A stretch of 64,000 bases of DNA from Acidobacteriota bacterium. Lineage in GTDB: Bacteria; Acidobacteriota; Aminicenantia; UBA2199. The stretch covers positions 96,251-160,250 of the forward strand of contig JBDLJQ010000001.1 of the NCBI GenBank assembly GCA_039714255.1. The letters run 5' to 3'. How positions within the stretch are numbered: the stretch's first letter is position 1; each line of letters opens with the position of its first letter. A program made the translations under genes and the position numbers. Shown here piece by piece: positions 21,811-53,932 of this stretch. Under the pieces are notes generated by a model. The model did not search any database, had not been told where the DNA came from, and saw nothing but the letters and a program-made list of their open reading frames with translations.

Positions 21811-23823
21811 TTATTTTTTATATTTTTTCAGGGCTTCTTCTATCTTTTTTTCATCTGCTACATAGGGTAATGTAATATGGCCCTTTCCTCTATTTTCTTC
21901 ATTCCACTCTGCTACTGTTTCCAGTGAATTTTTATTCCTTGCCCAGGCACGCCTTGCAACACCATTCATAACATCCCACTCCATTGCCGAGCGGATGATC
22001 TTATCTTTCAATTTGCTTCCATCCAGAACAAGGCCGAACCCTCCGTTAAAAGCTTTACCTATTCCAACACCTCCGCCATTGGAAAGGACAACCATTGACA
22101 TTCCCCTCACGGCATCACCGGCAAAATTCTGTACTGCCATATCAGCAGTCACATTACTTCCATCCTTTATATTGGAAGTTTCCCTGAAAGGTGAATCAGT
22201 ACCTGAAACATCATGATGGTCGCGGCCGATCATAACAGGGCCGATCTCTCCGTTCCTGATCATCTCATTGAACTTTAAGGCAATATTAACTCTTCCACCT
22301 GCATCAGCATAGAGTATCCTCGCCTGGGTGCCAACAACAAGTTCATTCGTTTCAGCATCTTTTATCCACTGGTAATTATCCCTGTCCATACCACGCCTTT
22401 CAGGATCAATCCGGGTCATAGCAGCAGCATCGGTCTTTTTCAGGTCTTCTTTATTACCGGACAGGCATACCCATCTGAAGGGCCCGTAACCATAATCAAA
22501 ACACATGGGCCCCATTATATGCTCTACATAACTGGGATAAACAAATCCGGATGAGGGATCATCCGGGTTTATTGCAACTGATCTTTCTCCTGCATCAAAA
22601 ACCGCTTTCAGGAATGAATTGCCATAATCCCAGAAATAGGTTCCGTTCCCTGTCAGTTCTTTTATTAATTTATAGTGTTTCAGAAGTGACCTGTCCACCT
22701 CTTCATTAAATTTTTCCTGATCATTTTCAAGCAATTTACGCCCTTCTTCAAATGTATAACCTGCCGGTGTATATCCTCCGCCATAAGCATCGTGGCAGGA
22801 AGTCTGATCTGAGAGAAGTTCTATTTTTATTTTCTTTTCTGCAAAATATTCAAGGAGGTCCACAATATTTCCATGATATGCAATGGAGACAGCTTCTTTT
22901 GAGGCCCTGTATTCTTCCATCCATTTTGCTATTTGACTGAGATCCCCGGAAACCAGTGAGACCCAACCCTGGTCCAGTCTTGTCTTTATCCTGGAATAAT
23001 CCACCTCTGCAATAATCCCGATACCCCCGGTGATCTCAATTGCCTTCGGTTGTGCACCACTCATACCTCCCAGGCCTGAGCTTACAAAAACAACTCCACT
23101 GAGATCCTCATCCTGGGGTATGTTAAGATAAAGCCTCCCTGCATTCAGCAGGGTAATATATGTTCCATGTACGATCCCCTGCGGGCCGATATACATCCAT
23201 CCTCCCGCTGTCATCTGTCCGTAATTAGATACCCCCATTGCTGCAGCTTTCTGGAAACCTTCAAGGTTATCATAAAGCCCTACAAGCATCCCGTTAGTTG
23301 AGATCACCCTGGGGGATTCTTTAGAGGTTGGAAAAAGGCCAAGCGGATGACCCGAATATATAATCAGTGTCTGTTCATCGGTCATCTCTTCCAGATATTT
23401 TTTTGTAAGATTATATTGCATCCAGTTTTGGAAAACCTGCCCGTTCTCTCCATAGGTAACCAACTCATAAGGATAAAGTGCTACATCAAAGTCAAGATTA
23501 TTATCTATCATTACCTGAAAAGCCTTTGCTTCGACTATTTTCCCTTTGTATGTGTTAACAGGAGCCCCGCTGAGCTCTCCCTCAGGCCTGTACCTGTAAC
23601 CGTATATTCTCCCCTTTGTAAATAGTTCATCAAGGAATTCCGGAATAAGATCATCGTGAAGATTTTTCGGTATATAACGAAGAGCATTTTGAAGTGCTGT
23701 TATGATCTCCTCTTTTCCAAGATTCAATCCCCGGTTGGGTGCTCTTCTAATGTCCTGCCTGAACTCTTTTTTTTCAGGTAATCTATCGGGTAAAGTAAAG
23801 TTTATTCCATCTTTTAGTTCCAT
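21811..23823 (-). CDS. hutU: Urocanate hydratase
   Basis: Urocanase family sequence throughout (…GMSGAQPKA…, …WVCLSGNKEDL…). The true start is the Met at 23823 with ggagg 5 nt upstream. The ORF-track extension to 24087 crosses the purD promoter region and is an artefact. Confidence 0.85.
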   Translation of the reverse strand: MELKDGINFTLPDRLPEKKEFRQDIRRAPNRGLNLGKEEIITALQNALRYIPKNLHDDLIPEFLDELFTKGRIYGYRYRPEGELSGAPVNTYKGKIVEAKAFQVMIDNNLDFDVALYPYELVTYGENGQVFQNWMQYNLTKKYLEEMTDEQTLIIYSGHPLGLFPTSKESPRVISTNGMLVGLYDNLEGFQKAAAMGVSNYGQMTAGGWMYIGPQGIVHGTYITLLNAGRLYLNIPQDEDLSGVVFVSSGLGGMSGAQPKAIEITGGIGIIAEVDYSRIKTRLDQGWVSLVSGDLSQIAKWMEEYRASKEAVSIAYHGNIVDLLEYFAEKKIKIELLSDQTSCHDAYGGGYTPAGYTFEEGRKLLENDQEKFNEEVDRSLLKHYKLIKELTGNGTYFWDYGNSFLKAVFDAGERSVAINPDDPSSGFVYPSYVEHIMGPMCFDYGYGPFRWVCLSGNKEDLKKTDAAAMTRIDPERRGMDRDNYQWIKDAETNELVVGTQARILYADAGGRVNIALKFNEMIRNGEIGPVMIGRDHHDVSGTDSPFRETSNIKDGSNVTADMAVQNFAGDAVRGMSMVVLSNGGGVGIGKAFNGGFGLVLDGSKLKDKIIRSAMEWDVMNGVARRAWARNKNSLETVAEWNEENRGKGHITLPYVADEKKIEEALKKYKK

Positions 23824-23938
23824 AATTCCTCCAGGTTGAAATATATTCAAAACATCTGTAGTTGTCAAGGTTTTCTGTATGGCAATATTCTTTACCAATC
23901 TGTTCTTATATCGTATAATAAAAAAATCGGAGGCTAAC

Positions 23939-25201
23939 ATGAAAATATTAGTGATCGGTTCAGGCGGAAGGGAACATGCACTTATATGGAAGATATCCCA
24001 ATCAAAAAGGGTAGACAAGATATATGCCCTCCCTGGCAACGGCGGAATAAGTGATCTTGCAGAGATCGTTGATATAGATGCATCCAATATTATTGAGATC
24101 GCAGATTTTGTTCAGGAAAAAAAGATCCACCTCACTGTTGTAGGGCCCGAGCTTCCACTATCACTGGGGATCGTAGACGAATTCAACAAAAGAAACCTTA
24201 AGATATTCGGCCCCACCCGTAAAGCATCTTTAATTGAAAGTTCAAAGGCATTTGCAAAGGAATTTATGAAAAAAAATAAAATTCCTACAGCAGGATATAG
24301 TATCTTCAGCTCTGCCATGGAAGCAGTAAATTATATTAAAACCTGTAATTTTCCGGTGGTAGTAAAAACAGACGGGCTTGCAGCCGGAAAGGGAGTTTTT
24401 ATCTGTGAGGATATAAAAAGTGCAGAGGAGAGTATAAGGACGATCCTTATGGAAAATAAGTTTGGCAAGTCAGGAGAACAGATCGTGATCGAAGAATTTC
24501 TTAAGGGTGAAGAGATGTCATTTATAGTTATATCCGATGGAAAAAGGGCTTTGCCGCTTGTAACCTCAATGGATTATAAGAGAGCAGAAGAGAATGATAA
24601 GGGCCCCAATACGGGTGGGATGGGTGCAATATCACCTGCTCCGGGAATAAATGAAAAACTTTTTAATAAAATTATGGAATCAATAATATTGCCCACAATA
24701 GAAGGATTAAGGTTTGAGGGAAAAGAATTCAGAGGGGTTTTGTATGCAGGATTAATGATAACATCAGAAGGCCCCAAAACACTGGAATTTAATGTGAGAT
24801 TCGGCGACCCGGAGACCCAGGCCATTTTACTCAGATTAAAGAGCGATATAATAGACATATTTGAAGGTGCTGTTGAAGGCAGCCTTCACGATGTGGAAGC
24901 AGAGTGGGAAGAAAATGTTTCTGCATGTGTGGTCCTTGCTTCTGAGGGTTATCCCGGACAATACGAAACCGGAAAAAAACTTGAAGATCTCCATAGGGCA
25001 AAAACTTCCGGAGTAGAAATTTTCCATGCCGGTACAAGAGTTGAGGATAAAACATATCTGACATCCGGAGGAAGAGTATTAAATGTTTGCGCAAGCAGCC
25101 CAACTTTAAAGGAGACAATGAAAAAGATCTATGATTCGATCCCTTTCATAAAATATGAAAATTTATACTACAGAAAAGATATTGGAGGAATTAAACGATG
25201 A
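23939..25201 (+). CDS. purD: Phosphoribosylamine--glycine ligase
   Basis: MKILVIGSGGREHAL is the PurD N-terminus, on an ATP-grasp fold. The start is at 23939 with ggagg upstream and a tataat at 23914-23919. Confidence 0.9.
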   Translation: MKILVIGSGGREHALIWKISQSKRVDKIYALPGNGGISDLAEIVDIDASNIIEIADFVQEKKIHLTVVGPELPLSLGIVDEFNKRNLKIFGPTRKASLIESSKAFAKEFMKKNKIPTAGYSIFSSAMEAVNYIKTCNFPVVVKTDGLAAGKGVFICEDIKSAEESIRTILMENKFGKSGEQIVIEEFLKGEEMSFIVISDGKRALPLVTSMDYKRAEENDKGPNTGGMGAISPAPGINEKLFNKIMESIILPTIEGLRFEGKEFRGVLYAGLMITSEGPKTLEFNVRFGDPETQAILLRLKSDIIDIFEGAVEGSLHDVEAEWEENVSACVVLASEGYPGQYETGKKLEDLHRAKTSGVEIFHAGTRVEDKTYLTSGGRVLNVCASSPTLKETMKKIYDSIPFIKYENLYYRKDIGGIKR

Positions 25202-36390: not shown

Positions 36391-36514
36391 CCGGGTTTTC
36401 CCATGATCATTTTCCATAATTGAAATAGTGCGGAAACTTTTATATAATTATGTTCCTGTGAAACTTTATATAAAAATTAAGCGTCATAGTTAAAATAGAT
36501 ATTTGGAGGATAGT

Positions 36515-37933
36515 ATGAAAAAAACAGGATTTATAGCCGGAATCAGTTTTCTGGCCGGTGCAATTTTCTTTGCACTTGCATTCGGATATATTCAGAATTC
36601 TGACGGGACACCGGTAATAAAACAGGAAGAAGCTTTTGCCCAGTCAAAAACTGAAAATTCATTTAATTTTGTCTCACTTGTAAAAAAGGTAAAACCGGCA
36701 GTAGTAAAAGTGGAATCGGAAGCCATAAGGGAGAGAAGGTCAATGTTCAGAGATGACCTTTTCGACAGATTTTTTAACAATCCCAAGAGGAAAGAGAGAG
36801 TTTCCGGAATGGGTTCCGGATTTTTGATATCATCAGACGGTTTTATAATAACAAATAACCATGTAGTTAAAGATGCCATCAAAGTAACTATCTCCACAAT
36901 AGACGGCAAAAAACATATAGCTAAAATAATAGGGACTGACTCTAAGACCGACCTTGCCCTTTTAAAAATAAAAGGGAAGAACCACCCCTATGTTGAACTG
37001 GGAAATTCGGAAAAAGTTGAAGTTGGTGAGTGGGTGCTTGCAATCGGGAACCCTTTCTCCCAGGATCTGACCGTTACATCAGGGATCATCTCTGCAAAAG
37101 GGAGAAGGATCCGTGCTGCAGAATATGAAGATTATCTCCAGACCGATGCAGCTATAAACCGCGGTAATTCAGGCGGGCCCCTGATCAACCTTAAAGGAAA
37201 GGTTATCGGGATAAATTCAGTTATTATCGCTCCTGCAGGGGGAAGTGTGGGGATCGGTTTTGCAATCCCATCCGATATGGCTAAAAAAGTAATAGGAGAC
37301 ATTAAGACCAAAGGGAGGGTAATCAGAGGCTGGTTCGGAATAAGTATTCAGGAATTCAATAAAGAAGATGCCAAACAATTTGATTATCCTGTCAGCGGAC
37401 TTCTGATAACCCAGGTGGAGAATAACTCTCCGGCTGAAAAATCCGGATTAAAAAGGAACGATTTTATAATAAAATTGAACAATAAAAGGATCAGAAGCGG
37501 CCATGACCTTAAACTGAAGATTGCCAACGCAAATCCCGGAGAGATAATTCCGGTTACCATCTTCAGGGGAGATAAAAAGCTCAATATTAAAGTGAAGATA
37601 GGGGAAGCACCCGATACACTGAAATTCAGGACAAGAGGAGATGACGGCCGGACAGTTGACCTTGGAATGATACTTGTAGATAACAGCAGGTCGCTGGCAA
37701 GAGAATATGAGTTAAGGACATCTCAGGGAATAGTTGTTCAGAAAGCTGCCGGGATAGCCACTCGTAATGGTATAAAGGCTTTTGATGTTATTCTTGGAGT
37801 GAACAGAGCTGAAATAACTTCGGTTGAACAATTCAGGAAGATAATGGGTGAAAAAAAATCAGGATCATATGTTTTCCTCTATATCAACAGGTTCGGCCAG
37901 GAATTCTACAATAAGTTCAAATTACCTGAATGA
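36515..37933 (+). CDS. htrA: Periplasmic serine endoprotease, DegP/HtrA family, with two PDZ domains
   Basis: Catalytic triad context (TNNHVV, DLALLKI, GNSGGPL) and two PDZ-like regions. The start is the ATG at 36515 after ggagga. Confidence 0.88.
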   Translation: MKKTGFIAGISFLAGAIFFALAFGYIQNSDGTPVIKQEEAFAQSKTENSFNFVSLVKKVKPAVVKVESEAIRERRSMFRDDLFDRFFNNPKRKERVSGMGSGFLISSDGFIITNNHVVKDAIKVTISTIDGKKHIAKIIGTDSKTDLALLKIKGKNHPYVELGNSEKVEVGEWVLAIGNPFSQDLTVTSGIISAKGRRIRAAEYEDYLQTDAAINRGNSGGPLINLKGKVIGINSVIIAPAGGSVGIGFAIPSDMAKKVIGDIKTKGRVIRGWFGISIQEFNKEDAKQFDYPVSGLLITQVENNSPAEKSGLKRNDFIIKLNNKRIRSGHDLKLKIANANPGEIIPVTIFRGDKKLNIKVKIGEAPDTLKFRTRGDDGRTVDLGMILVDNSRSLAREYELRTSQGIVVQKAAGIATRNGIKAFDVILGVNRAEITSVEQFRKIMGEKKSGSYVFLYINRFGQEFYNKFKLPE

Positions 37934-38757
37934 TCTTTTATAAATCATCTTCAGCCGGTAATAGTTTCCTTGTTATTGAAAAAGAAGAGCTGAAAAATAA
38001 GAACAAAAATATATCAGAATTTTCCCGGAATATCTGTAACAGAGAGGAGGGTGCCGGTGCAGACGGCCTTATAATTTATGAAGACAGAGGCAGTTCTGTT
38101 AAATTTTCTATATTCAACAGAGATGGCAGCGAAGCTGAGATATCGGGAAACGGAATGGCGGGATTATCTTCCCTCTTATTTTATCTGGGAGAAAAAGAGA
38201 AAGAAATTGTTCTTGATACAAAAGCAGGGAAAAAAACTATCAGCCTTATCAAAAAGGAAGGGAATGAATTTAACCTTATGGTTGAGATAGGGGTTCCCGA
38301 TTTTTTTAACCTTGAATTCTTCCCCTTTCTGGAAGAGGGAAGAACATTTTATGAATATAAAGATTTTTCTTTTTATCCCGTCTCGGTGGGCAATCCTCAT
38401 ATAGTCCTTTTTCCTGAAACAAAACCGGAAAAAGACGAAATGATAAAAATAGGAGCCGAACTTGAACAGGGATCAATTTTTCCCCGGAGGACAAATGTTG
38501 AGTTCGTATTTCCTTTTAAAAAGAATATCACTAATACCGATACAGAGATAGATGCTTTTTTTTATGAGAGAGGGGCCGGAGAAACAAACCATTCTTCCAC
38601 CGGAAGTGCTGCAATTTATTCTGTAATGAAGAACCGGAACCTTTTAAACAAAGATCTGTTAATAAAATACGGGAGGAAAAATATCAGAATTCGGGGAGAA
38701 AATAAGATTTATATTGAAAATTATACAAAAATAGTTTATAAAGGAGTTTATCTTTAA
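37930..38757 (+). CDS. Diaminopimelate-epimerase-fold protein with both catalytic Cys replaced by Ser
   Basis: Aligns along its length with E. coli DapF (GNSFLVIE/GNDFMVVD, DGSEAEISGNG vs DGSEVAQCGNG, VGNPHIV vs MGNPHCV, YERGAGETNHSSTGS vs YERGAGETQACGSGA). The codons at the two Cys positions are tcg and tcc. There is a 4-nt overlap with htrA. Confidence 0.65.
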   Translation: MIFYKSSSAGNSFLVIEKEELKNKNKNISEFSRNICNREEGAGADGLIIYEDRGSSVKFSIFNRDGSEAEISGNGMAGLSSLLFYLGEKEKEIVLDTKAGKKTISLIKKEGNEFNLMVEIGVPDFFNLEFFPFLEEGRTFYEYKDFSFYPVSVGNPHIVLFPETKPEKDEMIKIGAELEQGSIFPRRTNVEFVFPFKKNITNTDTEIDAFFYERGAGETNHSSTGSAAIYSVMKNRNLLNKDLLIKYGRKNIRIRGENKIYIENYTKIVYKGVYL

Positions 38758-38762
38758 CTATA

Positions 38763-39398
38763 ATGAGAAAATTACCGGCTGCAATTCTATTATGTTTTGT
38801 GTTCACCTTCAGCATATTTCTATACGGTGATACACTGTATACAGTTGATAACAAAGTATACACGGGGAAACTTGTAGCTTTTAAATTTGACACCGTATAT
38901 TTTAATGTTTATAAATTCGGAAAAATTTCAGAAACAAAAAGATTCCCGCTCTTCAAGATACACAAAATTGTATTTAACCCGAAGAAAGATATGATCGAAT
39001 CCTCTTTTGAAATTGAACAAAAATATAAAAAGCTCAGAAGAGGCAAAAGGGTAAAAACCATAATACTTAAGGCCGGCACAAAATGGATGGATACAAATAT
39101 TAAACTGAGGGAAAAACAGAGCATCCTTTTTTCCACAACAGGATCCATAGTGATCAAGGGTGAACAAAAAGTTTATCAATATGGCGAACTGAATGTCAGC
39201 TTTCATATGCAGAAACAACTTCCCACACAGCCTACAGGCGCAATAATAGCAAAGATCGGTAAAGAGGGAACCCCTTTTTATATTGGAGCAAATCTCGCTC
39301 CCTTCAAAATCAATAAAGCGGGAAAATTGTTTATAGGGATAAACGATTTTAATTTTGACGATAATAGTGGTAATTTTACAGTTAAAATATATTATTAA
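38763..39398 (+). CDS. Secreted protein with a C-terminal PA-IL/LecA-like lectin domain
   Basis: Signal peptide. The C-terminus (GAIIAKIGKEGTPFYIGANL...INDFNFDDNSGNFTVKIY) resembles P. aeruginosa LecA (IGNSGTIPVN...[20 protein letters not shown]). Confidence 0.45.
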   Translation: MRKLPAAILLCFVFTFSIFLYGDTLYTVDNKVYTGKLVAFKFDTVYFNVYKFGKISETKRFPLFKIHKIVFNPKKDMIESSFEIEQKYKKLRRGKRVKTIILKAGTKWMDTNIKLREKQSILFSTTGSIVIKGEQKVYQYGELNVSFHMQKQLPTQPTGAIIAKIGKEGTPFYIGANLAPFKINKAGKLFIGINDFNFDDNSGNFTVKIYY

Positions 39399-46580: not shown

Positions 46581-48863
46581 ATGCTGAAAGCCTTTGATAA
46601 GTATGTCCTGAAAGAGATCGCATCTCCATTTGCCATAGGGTTGCTGATCTATACATTTACATTGCTGATCAACATGATATTTATTCTTTCACAGACACTT
46701 ATATCAAAAGGAGCTACAACATTTACAATTGTAAAAATACTGGTTTACCTTTTGCCTGATATTCTCTCTTTCACTATTCCCATGGCAACTTTGATGGGAG
46801 TACTTGCGGGAATGAGCCGCATGAGCACAGACTCGGAAATTGTTGCCCTGAGAACAATGGGTGTGAATAACTTCAGGATATTCAGGCCCATTATAATATT
46901 CTCCCTGATCACATGGTTCATTTCCTCTATCCTTATAATGTATCTTGCCCCGGAAGGGAATTATCAATATCGTAAACTCAATACAAAGATCATGTTATCA
47001 AAAGCTATGTCAAGTATGAAACCGAGAACATTTAACTATGAACTTTATCCCTTTGTATTATTCTTTAATGATATTGATAAAAAGACAAATGAGTGGAAAG
47101 ATGTATTCCTTTATTCCAGAAAAGATCCCAGGACTGACAATGTTATCCTTGCAAAACGGGGAAGTTTCATACAGCTTGAAGGGGAAAGAAAAAGCTATTT
47201 TTCACTGAAAAATGCAACTCTTCACAGCTTTGAAAAAATGAATCCCGGGAAAAAATATTTCACAACATTTCATAAAAAAACCTCTGAAGAGATAATGGAA
47301 ACACTAACCGTAAAAAGAACCAGAAGCAGCCAGCAGCTGATCTTCCCCGAACTGATAAAAAAGATGAAAGAGAGACCGGATGATATTGGCCTTAAGAGGG
47401 AGTTTCACAGAAAATTTTCACTACCCTTTGCATGCCTTGCCCTGGGGTTCCTTGCCCTTTCACTCGGAATATCAACAAAAAAGGGAGGTAAGGTAAGTGG
47501 TTTTATTATTTCCCTTGGGATAATTTTCATCTATTATACTGCAATTACAACATTTCAGAACATTGTCATGAAAGGGATAGTCTCCCCTTTCTTCGGTATG
47601 TGGGCTCCCAATTTTTTCCTGCTCCTTTCAGGATTGATATTTTATTATTACAGCTCAAGGGAAAAATCAATAAACTGGGATAAAATTTTTTCCATCTTCC
47701 ACAGGGAAAAATTTAAAGGAGAGAAAAAAAAAGGTAATATAGTTTTTTCCATCTCCATAAAGAAACCGCAATTAAGATTGTTTAAAATAATAGATGTTTA
47801 TATTCTGAAAAAAATGGTGGCAATGCTGCTGTTTATATTTACATCTCTACTGATGGTCTTTTATATAGTGCGTATTGTAGAACTTATTGACACTATGATC
47901 GAGAACAATATTCCATTTGCCTATGTTTTAAAGTATGTATACTATAATACTCCGGAAATGATAAGCTTTGTACTCCCCGTATCCATATTAACAACTGTTC
48001 TTCTAACTTTCTCAATAATGAGTAAAAACAATGAAATAACCGCAGTCCGTGTCAGTGGTATCAGCTTATACAGAATTGCAGTTCCTGCAATAGTTGTTGG
48101 AATTTTTTTCTCTTTCCTCTACTTTTATATACAGGAAACCATTACCCCCGGAGCGAACAGAAATGCAGTGAGAGTCCTTAATAAAATCTATAAACGAAAG
48201 AGTGCTCCCGATCCGGAACTTTATAAAACCTGGATCTCCGGTAAGGATAACACCTTCTACTTTTATTCTCTGGATACAAAAAACCTGGGGAAAAAGTATA
48301 AAAATTTTAATATTCTCAAATTGAATAAAGATTTTTCAATTAAAGAGAGAATATCAGCACGCACTGCAGTATGGAAAAACAAGAAGGATATAGTATTAAG
48401 AAGAGGTTTTACAAGGGATTTTACAAATAATTCACCCGTCAGGTTTTCAACTTTTAATAAGAAAATTTTTAATATAGAGGAGGGCAAATCATATTTTTCA
48501 AAAAAAGTTTCATATGGCCGGCATATGAATATTTCCCAGCTTAAAGAATATATAAAATATCTGAAGAAGAACGGATCAGAAACTACCAGATATGAGGCAA
48601 AGCTGTTTTATCATTATGCTTTCCCGTTCTCCAGCCTGATAATGGTGTTGATCGCAATACCTTTTTCATTTAGGATGGGTAAAAAGGGGACTCTGTTCGG
48701 TATCGGTATTGCAGTAGCAATATCAATGGTTTTCTGGGCAATTTTCAGTATTTTCAGCGCAATGGGTTCGGCATCAGTTCTATCCCCATTCATTTCTGCT
48801 TTTGCACCAATTCTTTTATTCGCTTCCATTTCCATATATCTTTTTGTAAACATAAAAACATAA
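46581..48863 (+). CDS. lptFG: Fused LPS-export permease LptF-LptG (two YjgP/YjgQ modules in one polypeptide)
   Basis: 760 aa. Residues 1-360 and about 400-760 each have the 6-TM plus periplasmic beta-jellyroll layout of LptF/LptG (two homologous blocks: IYTFTLLINMIFILSQTL... and IFTSLLMVFYIVRIVELID...). Confidence 0.65.
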   Translation: MLKAFDKYVLKEIASPFAIGLLIYTFTLLINMIFILSQTLISKGATTFTIVKILVYLLPDILSFTIPMATLMGVLAGMSRMSTDSEIVALRTMGVNNFRIFRPIIIFSLITWFISSILIMYLAPEGNYQYRKLNTKIMLSKAMSSMKPRTFNYELYPFVLFFNDIDKKTNEWKDVFLYSRKDPRTDNVILAKRGSFIQLEGERKSYFSLKNATLHSFEKMNPGKKYFTTFHKKTSEEIMETLTVKRTRSSQQLIFPELIKKMKERPDDIGLKREFHRKFSLPFACLALGFLALSLGISTKKGGKVSGFIISLGIIFIYYTAITTFQNIVMKGIVSPFFGMWAPNFFLLLSGLIFYYYSSREKSINWDKIFSIFHREKFKGEKKKGNIVFSISIKKPQLRLFKIIDVYILKKMVAMLLFIFTSLLMVFYIVRIVELIDTMIENNIPFAYVLKYVYYNTPEMISFVLPVSILTTVLLTFSIMSKNNEITAVRVSGISLYRIAVPAIVVGIFFSFLYFYIQETITPGANRNAVRVLNKIYKRKSAPDPELYKTWISGKDNTFYFYSLDTKNLGKKYKNFNILKLNKDFSIKERISARTAVWKNKKDIVLRRGFTRDFTNNSPVRFSTFNKKIFNIEEGKSYFSKKVSYGRHMNISQLKEYIKYLKKNGSETTRYEAKLFYHYAFPFSSLIMVLIAIPFSFRMGKKGTLFGIGIAVAISMVFWAIFSIFSAMGSASVLSPFISAFAPILLFASISIYLFVNIKT

Positions 48864-52867: not shown

Positions 52868-53932
52868 ATGAAAAACCTTATTCTCGTTATCAACACAGGA
52901 AATACCTCCACAAAGATAGGTATCTTTGACCTGGACAAAGAAATTTTTACAGAAACAATAAAACATTCCGATAAAGAATTAAGCAGATTTTCTGATATTA
53001 ATGAACAACTGGAATTCAGGGAACATCTTGTGCTGGAATTTCTAAAGGATAAAAATATAGATATTAATACACTTAAAGCTGTGGCAGCCCGCGGAGGCCT
53101 TCTCAAACCCCTTGCAAGCGGGACCTATTTTGTTAATGAAGAGATGATCAAAGACCTGAAAGCAGGTAAGAACGGGATGCATGCGTCACATCTCTCTGCA
53201 CAAATAGGAAATTCAATTGCAGAGAAATCATCTATTCACTGTTATATCGTTGACCCTATTTCGGTTGATGAATTTACCCCTGTGGCCAGATTATCAGGCC
53301 ATAAACTTTTTAACAGAATAATGTTATCCCACGCACTTAATATGAAAGCTGTTTCTAAAAGATATGCAAAAGAGAACAACTTGAATTATAATGATCTTAA
53401 CCTTATCATTATTCATCTTGGAACCGGAATTTCAGTATCTGCCCACCAGAATGGAAAAATGGTTGATAGTATTAATTCCAGTGAGGAGGGAACTTTTTCA
53501 CCCGACAGAGCCGGCGGGATACCGGTTTTACAAGCTGCAAAATATATAATTGAAAATAAAATTGATTTTAAAACTTTTTCAAATCTCATCTTCGGTAATG
53601 GCGGCCTTCAGTCCTATTTAAATACAAAAGATTTTATGAAAATTGAAAATATGTACAAATCCGGCGATAAAAAAGTAATTGAAGTTGTAGATGCAATGGC
53701 TTATCAGGTAGCAAAAGATGCAGGATCAATGGCAACCGTTTTAACGGGAAAAATTGACAAAATAATAATAACAGGAGGAATGGCAAATTCCGAATTATTA
53801 GTTAACCTGATCTCTGTAAGAATAAATTTTCTTGCTACGTTATTACTTTACCCCGGGGAAGATGAAATGACAGCCCTTGCTGAAGGAGTAAGCCGGATAC
53901 TTACCGGGGAAGAAGAAGAGATGTCATATTAA
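52868..53932 (+). CDS. buk: Butyrate-kinase-family (ASKHA) acyl kinase
   Basis: Colinear with Thermotoga Buk2 (INTGNTSTKI, GKNGMHASHL, IIHLGTGIS, GNGGL, AMAYQVAKD, ITGGMA). The start codon overlaps the mtnP stop (TGAATG). Confidence 0.75.
   Translation: MKNLILVINTGNTSTKIGIFDLDKEIFTETIKHSDKELSRFSDINEQLEFREHLVLEFLKDKNIDINTLKAVAARGGLLKPLASGTYFVNEEMIKDLKAGKNGMHASHLSAQIGNSIAEKSSIHCYIVDPISVDEFTPVARLSGHKLFNRIMLSHALNMKAVSKRYAKENNLNYNDLNLIIIHLGTGISVSAHQNGKMVDSINSSEEGTFSPDRAGGIPVLQAAKYIIENKIDFKTFSNLIFGNGGLQSYLNTKDFMKIENMYKSGDKKVIEVVDAMAYQVAKDAGSMATVLTGKIDKIIITGGMANSELLVNLISVRINFLATLLLYPGEDEMTALAEGVSRILTGEEEEMSY

Follow-up and report, generated by a model that had tools for sequence, protein, structure and literature searches.

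The window analyzed here, a 64,000-nucleotide stretch of contig JBDLJQ010000001.1 from an Acidobacteriota bacterium (assembly GCA_039714255.1, positions 96,251 to 160,250 of the forward strand), carried on its plus strand, at 37930–38757, a dapF-like gene whose product is a full-length member of the diaminopimelate (DAP) epimerase family, DapF, with serine at both catalytic cysteine positions. DapF serves in textbooks as an example of how two cysteines can racemize an amino acid without a cofactor, and it is also a target for antibacterials. The Ser/Ser state (serine at both positions, as opposed to the canonical Cys/Cys) was not a one-off and was more than chance; the replacement is apparently fixed in thousands of proteins of Acidobacteriota. 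The protein is quite possibly a working, though probably slower, epimerase.

Serines at the two catalytic positions of a full-length DapF

The open reading frame (ORF) starts with ATG and encodes 275 amino acids; the G+C content of the window was 37%. PF01678 (DAP_epimerase) matched the product twice (Pfam, expectation value (E) 2e-29), and the DapF equivalog profile TIGR00652 of NCBIfam aligned residues 1–274 with profile positions 1–268 of 270 with a score of 149.3 bits, where the curated cutoff is 114.65 bits, so that both the two-domain architecture and the score were those of a full-length DapF. An AlphaFold2 (AF2) model, with 56 homologues as input, had a predicted local distance difference test score (pLDDT) of 93 and a predicted template-modeling score (pTM) of 0.91, and it displayed the DapF fold, in which each of the two central helices has a catalytic position at its N-terminus. 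When the model was compared with the PDB by Foldseek, the first 18 matches were exclusively DapFs (E about 1e-23, template-modeling score (TM) 0.67–0.83); DcsC and further DapFs came next, and PhzF/YddE, HisR, and proline-racemase-type structures ranked much lower. Identity to the solved DapFs in the Foldseek alignments was only 20–27%. The identical protein had been deposited independently in NCBI and Logan, with the NCBI title 'MAG: diaminopimelate epimerase [Acidobacteriota bacterium]' on a 168-kb contig, and in all annotation that we encountered, including JGI and NCBI records, the Ser/Ser lineage was named 'diaminopimelate epimerase'.

In phmmer alignments to five solved DapFs, including those of Bacillus anthracis, Arabidopsis, a cyanobacterium, and Haemophilus influenzae, one ungapped register ran across both active-site motifs. 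At the first site, 'AEISGNG' of the window protein stood opposite 'SQCGNG', 'EMCGNG', and 'KSCGNG', with N63-x-D65-G66-S-E-A-E-I-S72-G73-N74-G75 aligned on N64-x-D-G-S-x-x-x-x-C73-G74-N75-G76 of the H. influenzae enzyme. At the second, 'ETNHSSTG' stood opposite 'ETQACGSG' and 'VTQACGTG', with E213-R214-G-A-G-E-T219-N-H-S222-S223-T224-G225 aligned on E208-R209-G-A-G-E-T-Q-A-C217-G218-S219-G220. Ser72 coincided with the engineered serine of the H. influenzae C73S mutant (PDB ID: 2Q9H) and Ser222 with that of C217S (PDB ID: 2Q9J). When 75 Cys/Cys representatives were aligned together with the window protein by MAFFT, both serines again fell in the columns of the catalytic cysteines, and in the AF2 model Ser72 directly preceded helix 73–85 and Ser222 directly preceded helix 223–235, which is the active-site geometry of DapF. 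Thus, in place of the thiol pair Cys73/Cys217, every alignment had Ser72/Ser222. A preliminary description of the window, made from its letters alone, had proposed that both thiols are replaced by serine in a protein otherwise colinear with DapF; the alignments, the two PF01678 matches, the TIGR00652 match, and the AF2 model all upheld this proposal, and none of the alignments or the model shifted the serines off the catalytic positions. Of the two codons that it had named, tcg was correct for Ser72 (TCG, 38143–38145), whereas tcc is the codon of Ser223 (38596–38598), which stands in place of the conserved Gly218; the equivalent of Cys217 is Ser222, encoded by TCT at 38593–38595.

The sole cysteine of the window protein was Cys36 (38035–38037). 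This column was Cys in 59 of 60 Ser/Ser representatives (98%) and in 57 of 75 Cys/Cys representatives (76%), and it corresponds to Ala34 in H. influenzae DapF. Given its presence in most Cys/Cys DapFs and the alanine of the H. influenzae enzyme, Cys36 was considered as a substitute thiol but not adopted.

Conservation of the serines and of the DAP pocket

Codons at the two sites were read from the window and 67 fetched loci, giving 67 and 65 codons, respectively. TCC, TCG, TCA, and TCT were all used at both sites, while AGY and Cys codons never occurred. Three readings were not Ser: Asn in L063, a frameshifted long-read assembly, and Thr in L065 and L066. The latter two were attributed to a register shift in tblastn, since MAFFT and a motif scan read Ser/Ser for the encoded protein P0199. 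Frameshifts broke the Ser/Ser dapF in two long-read metagenome-assembled genome (MAG) loci, L061 (6001–6917) and L063 (6001–6900); these breaks were most likely assembly errors rather than pseudogenes, and the Asn at site 72 of L063 and the split matches of L061 were for that reason rejected as divergent paralogues. The codon pattern corresponds to synonymous drift with Ser strictly conserved, and fits an origin from TGY codons by a single transversion. With four TCN codons at both sites and no other residue outside assembly or alignment artefacts, the pattern points to purifying selection for Ser itself.

Among 45 diverse Ser/Ser sequences, residues N11, D45, G46, N63, G66, S72, G73, N74, G75, G154, N155, P156, N189, E213, R214, G215, G217, T219, S222, and G225 were invariant, and T224, equivalent to H. 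influenzae S219, was nearly so. The H. influenzae counterparts of this set include N11, D43/Q44, N64, G74, N75, N157, N190, E208, and R209, which we take to be the DAP ligands of the ligand-bound structures 2GKE and 2GKJ; the DAP ligands of this enzyme were reportedly described by Pillai et al. in 2006. In the window protein, N11, N63, G73, N74, N155, N189, E213, R214, and T224 occupy the ligand positions. Because the invariant residues hold the two carboxylates and the two amines of DAP, the pocket appears to be maintained for DAP or a near-identical ligand. Simple decay into a pseudo-enzyme seems unlikely, since both serines and the DAP-contacting residues are conserved while synonymous codons vary.

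When Ser/Ser and Cys/Cys representatives were compared, a few further positions distinguished the two groups: Met71 (87% in Cys/Cys) was replaced by Ile or Leu, Met59 by Phe or variable residues, and Val211 by Phe or Ile. His157 and Glu213, which adjoin the second catalytic position, were retained. In a broad Ser/Ser clade distant from the window protein, differences from Cys/Cys DapFs were almost confined to the catalytic pair and positions 71, 59, and 211, the other canonical residues being essentially retained, and its members scored 197–251 bits on the DapF model.

Distribution of the Ser/Ser state

Of the 120 best homologues of the window protein, 118 were readable, and every one of these was Ser/Ser. 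In a further search, 9,221 relatives were found among 1.84 billion 50%-identity representatives. The best 150 representatives included 141 full-length proteins, of which 60 were Ser/Ser, 75 Cys/Cys, 6 Ser/Cys, and none Cys/Ser. In a rough neighbor-joining tree, Ser/Ser proteins were found mainly in two large adjacent clades, namely the clade of the window protein, with the motif ERGxGxTxxSSTGS, and the broader clade, with ERGVGxTxSSGTG; a few small Ser/Ser groups were nested among Cys/Cys sequences. Searches seeded with two members of the broader clade returned 120 of 120 and 119 of 119 Ser/Ser proteins, and the named members were Blastocatellia, Acidobacteria, or Bryobacteraceae. All six hybrids (P0164, P0172, P0173, P0184, P0193, and P0214) had Ser at the first site and Cys at the second. 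Either an ordered transition between Cys/Cys and Ser/Ser or enzymes that work in one direction might account for this bias.

One genome per GTDB species was also scanned with clade-specific peptide patterns designed from an alignment of 18 sequences. The scan located 61 loci, and their titles were almost all Candidatus Aminicenantes, Aminicenantia, or Acidobacteriota. The complete Aminicenantes-type order CitMHS-Yip1-htrA-dapF-p211-truB-DHH was also present on many contigs with the title 'uncultured Clostridia bacterium ... binchicken' (L004, L005, L019–L021, L026, and others), and these titles are apparently placeholders or wrong taxonomy.

In full-text literature searches, neither a description of a natural Ser/Ser DapF nor any account of how Aminicenantes or Acidobacteria metabolize DAP or lysine was found, and the phmmer and Foldseek comparisons with the PDB found no Ser/Ser DapF among solved structures.

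Probable orthology and gene neighborhood

The preliminary description had suggested that the gene might be a paralogue existing beside the cell's real DapF. This suggestion was not supported, as the protein scores above the equivalog cutoff and the gene was present at the same locus in 61 species-level Aminicenantes/Acidobacteriota genomes. The 64-kb window and the roughly 10 kb preceding it upstream contained neither a second DapF homologue nor any other DAP-pathway gene, and tblastn detected no second dapF copy in any of the 67 fetched loci. The nearest named Cys/Cys representatives belonged to Altiarchaeota, Atribacteria, and Clostridia, not to Acidobacteriota. From the single copy in the examined regions, the synteny, the 61 genomes, and the profile score, we read the gene as what is probably the lineage's own orthologous, syntenic dapF and not a side paralogue.

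The gene order in the window was a CitMHS transporter, a Yip1-domain protein, htrA, the Ser/Ser dapF, and a gene for a 211-aa protein, followed on the opposite strand by truB, a DHH phosphoesterase gene, rbfA, a DUF503 gene, infB, and nusA. The htrA gene (36503–37933, plus strand) is the upstream member of the operon and encodes a DegP-type serine protease of 476 aa with one Trypsin_2 and two PDZ domains (Pfam). The 4-nt overlap between htrA and dapF noted in the preliminary description was confirmed as an ATGA start/stop overlap at 37930–37933. Such an arrangement implies that the two genes would be translationally coupled. A homologue of htrA lay directly upstream of the Ser/Ser dapF in 58 loci, and the overlap was kept in 52 of these 58 Aminicenantes loci (−4, ATGA, in 48 and −1 in four). 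The htrA linkage was absent from the loci of Bryobacterales and other non-Aminicenantes Acidobacteriota that were examined. The 4-nt overlap was also observed in L072 (552–2872) and L073 (6529–8849), where rplS and rnhB follow; the Ser/Ser proteins of this lineage were only 34% identical to the window protein. Since the overlap recurs in so distant a lineage, the coupling appears to be older than the window protein's own clade.

The 211-aa protein (38763–39398, plus strand), encoded 5 nt downstream of dapF, has a hydrophobic N-terminus and matched no Pfam or NCBIfam family. A homologue with 46–63% identity followed the Ser/Ser dapF in 35 loci; the protein is probably secreted and can be regarded as an uncharacterized conserved operon member. 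In L037 and L056, the downstream genes encoded a signal-peptide protein of about 220 aa, outer-membrane-like, and a putative lipoprotein.

In some lineages the Ser/Ser gene lay within amino-acid biosynthetic operons: the order was aminotransferase-dapF-trpEGDCFBA in L070 and aminotransferase-dapF-...-aroAEKBQ in L074. The stand-alone aminotransferases directly upstream of the Ser/Ser dapF in L070 (6735–8855) and L074 (5424–7585) were orthologous, with 42% identity, and resembled the aminotransferase domain of MocR-type regulators. A neighboring PGM gene was considered as GlmM and rejected because it was PgmG-like.

Other features of the window

Three further ORFs of the window deserve mention. 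The plus-strand ORF at 46581–48863 (760 aa) had two LptF_LptG matches and looks like a fused LptF-LptG permease; the counterpart of this region in L002 was called as several short fragments. A urocanase ORF of 758 aa on the minus strand (21811–24087) matched Urocanase_N only from residue 175; either the protein is extended by about 170 aa at its N-terminus or the ORF was called too long. At 52868–53932 (plus strand), a 354-aa ORF matched the acetate kinase profile in its C-terminal half alone (positions 178–344 of 392); the product is a short or divergent member of the acetokinase family, and the ORF adjoins a PNP/UDP phosphorylase gene.

Discussion

The conservation of Ser at both sites and the untouched DAP pocket argue for a hydroxyl-dependent function on DAP, and the reading that we tentatively favor, at somewhat below even confidence, is a working, probably slower, Ser/Ser epimerase. 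A wider proposal, which we advance with more reserve and regard as doubtful at present, is that across much of Acidobacteriota (Aminicenantia, Blastocatellia, Bryobacterales, and relatives) a thiol-free Ser/Ser enzyme could be the sole DAP epimerase, a natural cofactor-independent one that deprotonates the alpha carbon by serine hydroxyls, contrary to the two-cysteine rule of such enzymes. In the mechanism that we envisage, the ancestral Cys73/Cys217 pair would have been replaced by Ser/Ser, each through one TGY-to-TCY transversion, with Ser/Cys intermediates that are still extant, after which large Acidobacteriota clades were fixed for Ser/Ser. The protein would still close around LL-/meso-diaminopimelate, and the alpha-proton would most likely be exchanged via the two serine hydroxyls acting as an acid/base pair, perhaps assisted by the helix dipoles and by His157 and Glu213, which are conserved and lie next to Ser222. 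Turnover would probably be slower than in thiol enzymes, and disulfide formation could not inactivate the enzyme. In Aminicenantes, synthesis from the same message as the periplasmic HtrA via the ATGA overlap, with envelope proteins encoded downstream, might link supply to envelope maintenance.

Compared with canonical DapFs (H. influenzae, PDB ID: 1BWZ/2GKE; Escherichia coli, 4IJZ; B. anthracis, 2OTN; Arabidopsis, 3EJX), the window protein has the same length, the two PF01678 domains, the fold (TM 0.75–0.84), and the DAP-binding residues N11, N63, N155, N189, E213, R214, and T224, but both catalytic cysteines are serine, and its clade also replaces the C-terminal Gly-Gly as well as, in H. influenzae numbering, Arg78, Cys79, and Gly218. 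The H. influenzae C73S and C217S mutants carry at the aligned positions the same substitutions that are natural here; each mutant has one serine, whereas the window protein has both, apparently kept under selection across the phylum.

Several observations weigh against a working Ser/Ser epimerase. The Aminicenantes clade, to which the window protein belongs, has lost residues that are 88–99% conserved in Cys/Cys enzymes, namely Arg77, Cys78, and Gly223, in whose places stand Ala, Gly, and Ser, respectively, along with the Gly249-Gly250 turn and Gly264; the position after the second catalytic site, for example, is Gly in 99% of Cys/Cys DapFs and Ser in 87% of this clade. No new His, Lys, Tyr, or acidic residue that could be a candidate base was found among the positions distinguishing Ser/Ser from Cys/Cys proteins. 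In all 24 syntenic loci compared, dapF was the least conserved of htrA, dapF, truB, and the DHH gene (median identity to the window 45%, versus 52–61% for the other three), which fits a possibly relaxed constraint. The C73S and C217S mutants of H. influenzae are said to lose orders of magnitude of activity (Koo et al. in 2000), and a double-Ser enzyme should be worse than the single mutants unless compensated. These mutants were made to slow catalysis for crystallography, and in enzymes of this class catalysis is slowed or hindered when Cys is mutated to Ser (PMC11602996). The aminotransferases in L067, L070, and L074 were rejected as DapL or DapC, being generic or MocR-like, and the M20 peptidase adjoining the Ser/Ser dapF in L065 and L068 was rejected as a confident DapE, its best NCBIfam matches being generic M20/glutamate carboxypeptidase models, all below cutoff. 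Because the DapE, DapL, and DapC labels were unconfirmed, the statement that the Ser/Ser gene sits with DAP genes was dropped; its position within amino-acid biosynthetic operons of some lineages was retained and speaks for the favored reading.

The loss of both thiols might instead have changed the chemistry, in that a DAP-like ligand would be bound and undergo another reaction, such as elimination/dehydration or a one-directional conversion, while meso-DAP would come from another enzyme; we consider this rather improbable, but it has a precedent in two cofactor-independent racemase superfamilies (PMC8142540). Natural aspartate/glutamate racemases with Thr for Cys (EcL-DER, MMP0739) still racemize, and in the Cys/Thr trans-3-hydroxy-L-proline dehydratases of the proline racemase superfamily a hydroxyl residue for Cys goes with a changed reaction (PMC8142540), so that retained racemization and changed reaction both have precedent. 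These Thr/Cys racemases and Cys/Thr dehydratases are likewise cofactor-independent two-base scaffolds with a hydroxyl in place of a catalytic Cys, which alters the direction or the type of reaction (PMC8142540), but they belong to other superfamilies or distant branches and keep one Cys, whereas the window protein keeps none at the catalytic sites. The protein had no Pfam or NCBIfam match to the proline racemase superfamily, whose structures appeared in Foldseek only at E about 1e-12 with 12–15% identity, below all DapF, DcsC, and PhzF entries, so the likeness to its dehydratases would be one of analogy only. A change of chemistry is also suggested by the six hybrids, all Ser-first/Cys-second, as expected if one half-reaction was given up first, by the strict conservation of Ser, which implies that the hydroxyls matter, and by the absence of further canonical residues from the Aminicenantes clade. 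It accords poorly with the unchanged DAP-binding set, including the distal-site residues Asn63, Asn155, Asn189, and Arg214, with the lack of any partner enzyme for a new pathway in the examined neighborhoods, and with the substrate itself, as DAP has no beta-leaving group for elimination. The substrate-shifted relatives of DapF (DcsC, the PhzF/YddE group, and HisR) also scored progressively lower in the fold and sequence comparisons. The O-ureidoserine racemase DcsC (PDB ID: 7VDY), the histidine racemases HisR/CntK (9CR1), and the PhzF/YddE isomerases, Cys-free and with a Glu/Asp catalytic pair, share the fold of the window protein, but DcsC matched it in phmmer at E 1.5e-9, against 7e-24 for DapF, and PhzF/YddE were alike at the fold level only (no family match, TM 0.59–0.71, 9–16% identity), while the window protein keeps the DapF motifs. 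The substrate-binding residues of these relatives differ from the DAP set. PhzF is an example of a DapF-type scaffold that is able to work without Cys.

Less probable still is a pseudo-enzyme, i.e., a catalytically dead DAP binder co-expressed with HtrA in the interest of envelope homeostasis, serving, for example, as a sensor of the DAP pool or as a protein modulator comparable to E. coli DapF in its complex with RppH (PDB ID: 6D13), which shows that a non-catalytic role exists within the family. The absence of a thiol from either catalytic position, faster evolution than all syntenic neighbors, the loss of Arg77, Cys78, Gly223, and the Gly-Gly turn, and operon partners that are envelope proteins rather than biosynthetic enzymes would all suit such a role. 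A mere binder should, however, accept Ala, Gly, or Thr at these sites, and Ser was invariant over hundreds of diverged sequences with varying codons; moreover, in the distant Ser/Ser clade the remaining canonical residues are essentially all present, with scores of 197–251 bits on the equivalog model, and the examined loci of Bryobacterales and other non-Aminicenantes Acidobacteriota had no linkage to htrA. An artefact of sequencing or assembly, or a recently inactivated dapF, might be suspected from the origin of the sequence in a MAG and from the frameshifts in the related long-read MAG loci L061 and L063. This explanation has a negligible probability and is already refuted: the ORF was intact, the identical protein was present independently in NCBI and Logan, both serines recurred in homologues from many independent assemblies, and the AF2 model was very confident.

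If serine does carry out this chemistry, as the favored Ser/Ser epimerase would require, the enzyme would open new mechanistic ground and would be a redox-insensitive DapF resistant to thiol alkylators; inhibitors of the aziridino-DAP type alkylate the catalytic cysteines of DapF. Otherwise, reconstructions of the lysine/peptidoglycan pathway of Acidobacteriota rest on a mis-assigned step. The Ser/Ser proteins are thus of interest both to enzymologists and for reconstruction of the lysine and peptidoglycan metabolism of Acidobacteriota, which rank among the most plentiful phyla of soil and sediment: either a serine-based epimerase works, or the phylum makes this cell-wall building block in another way.

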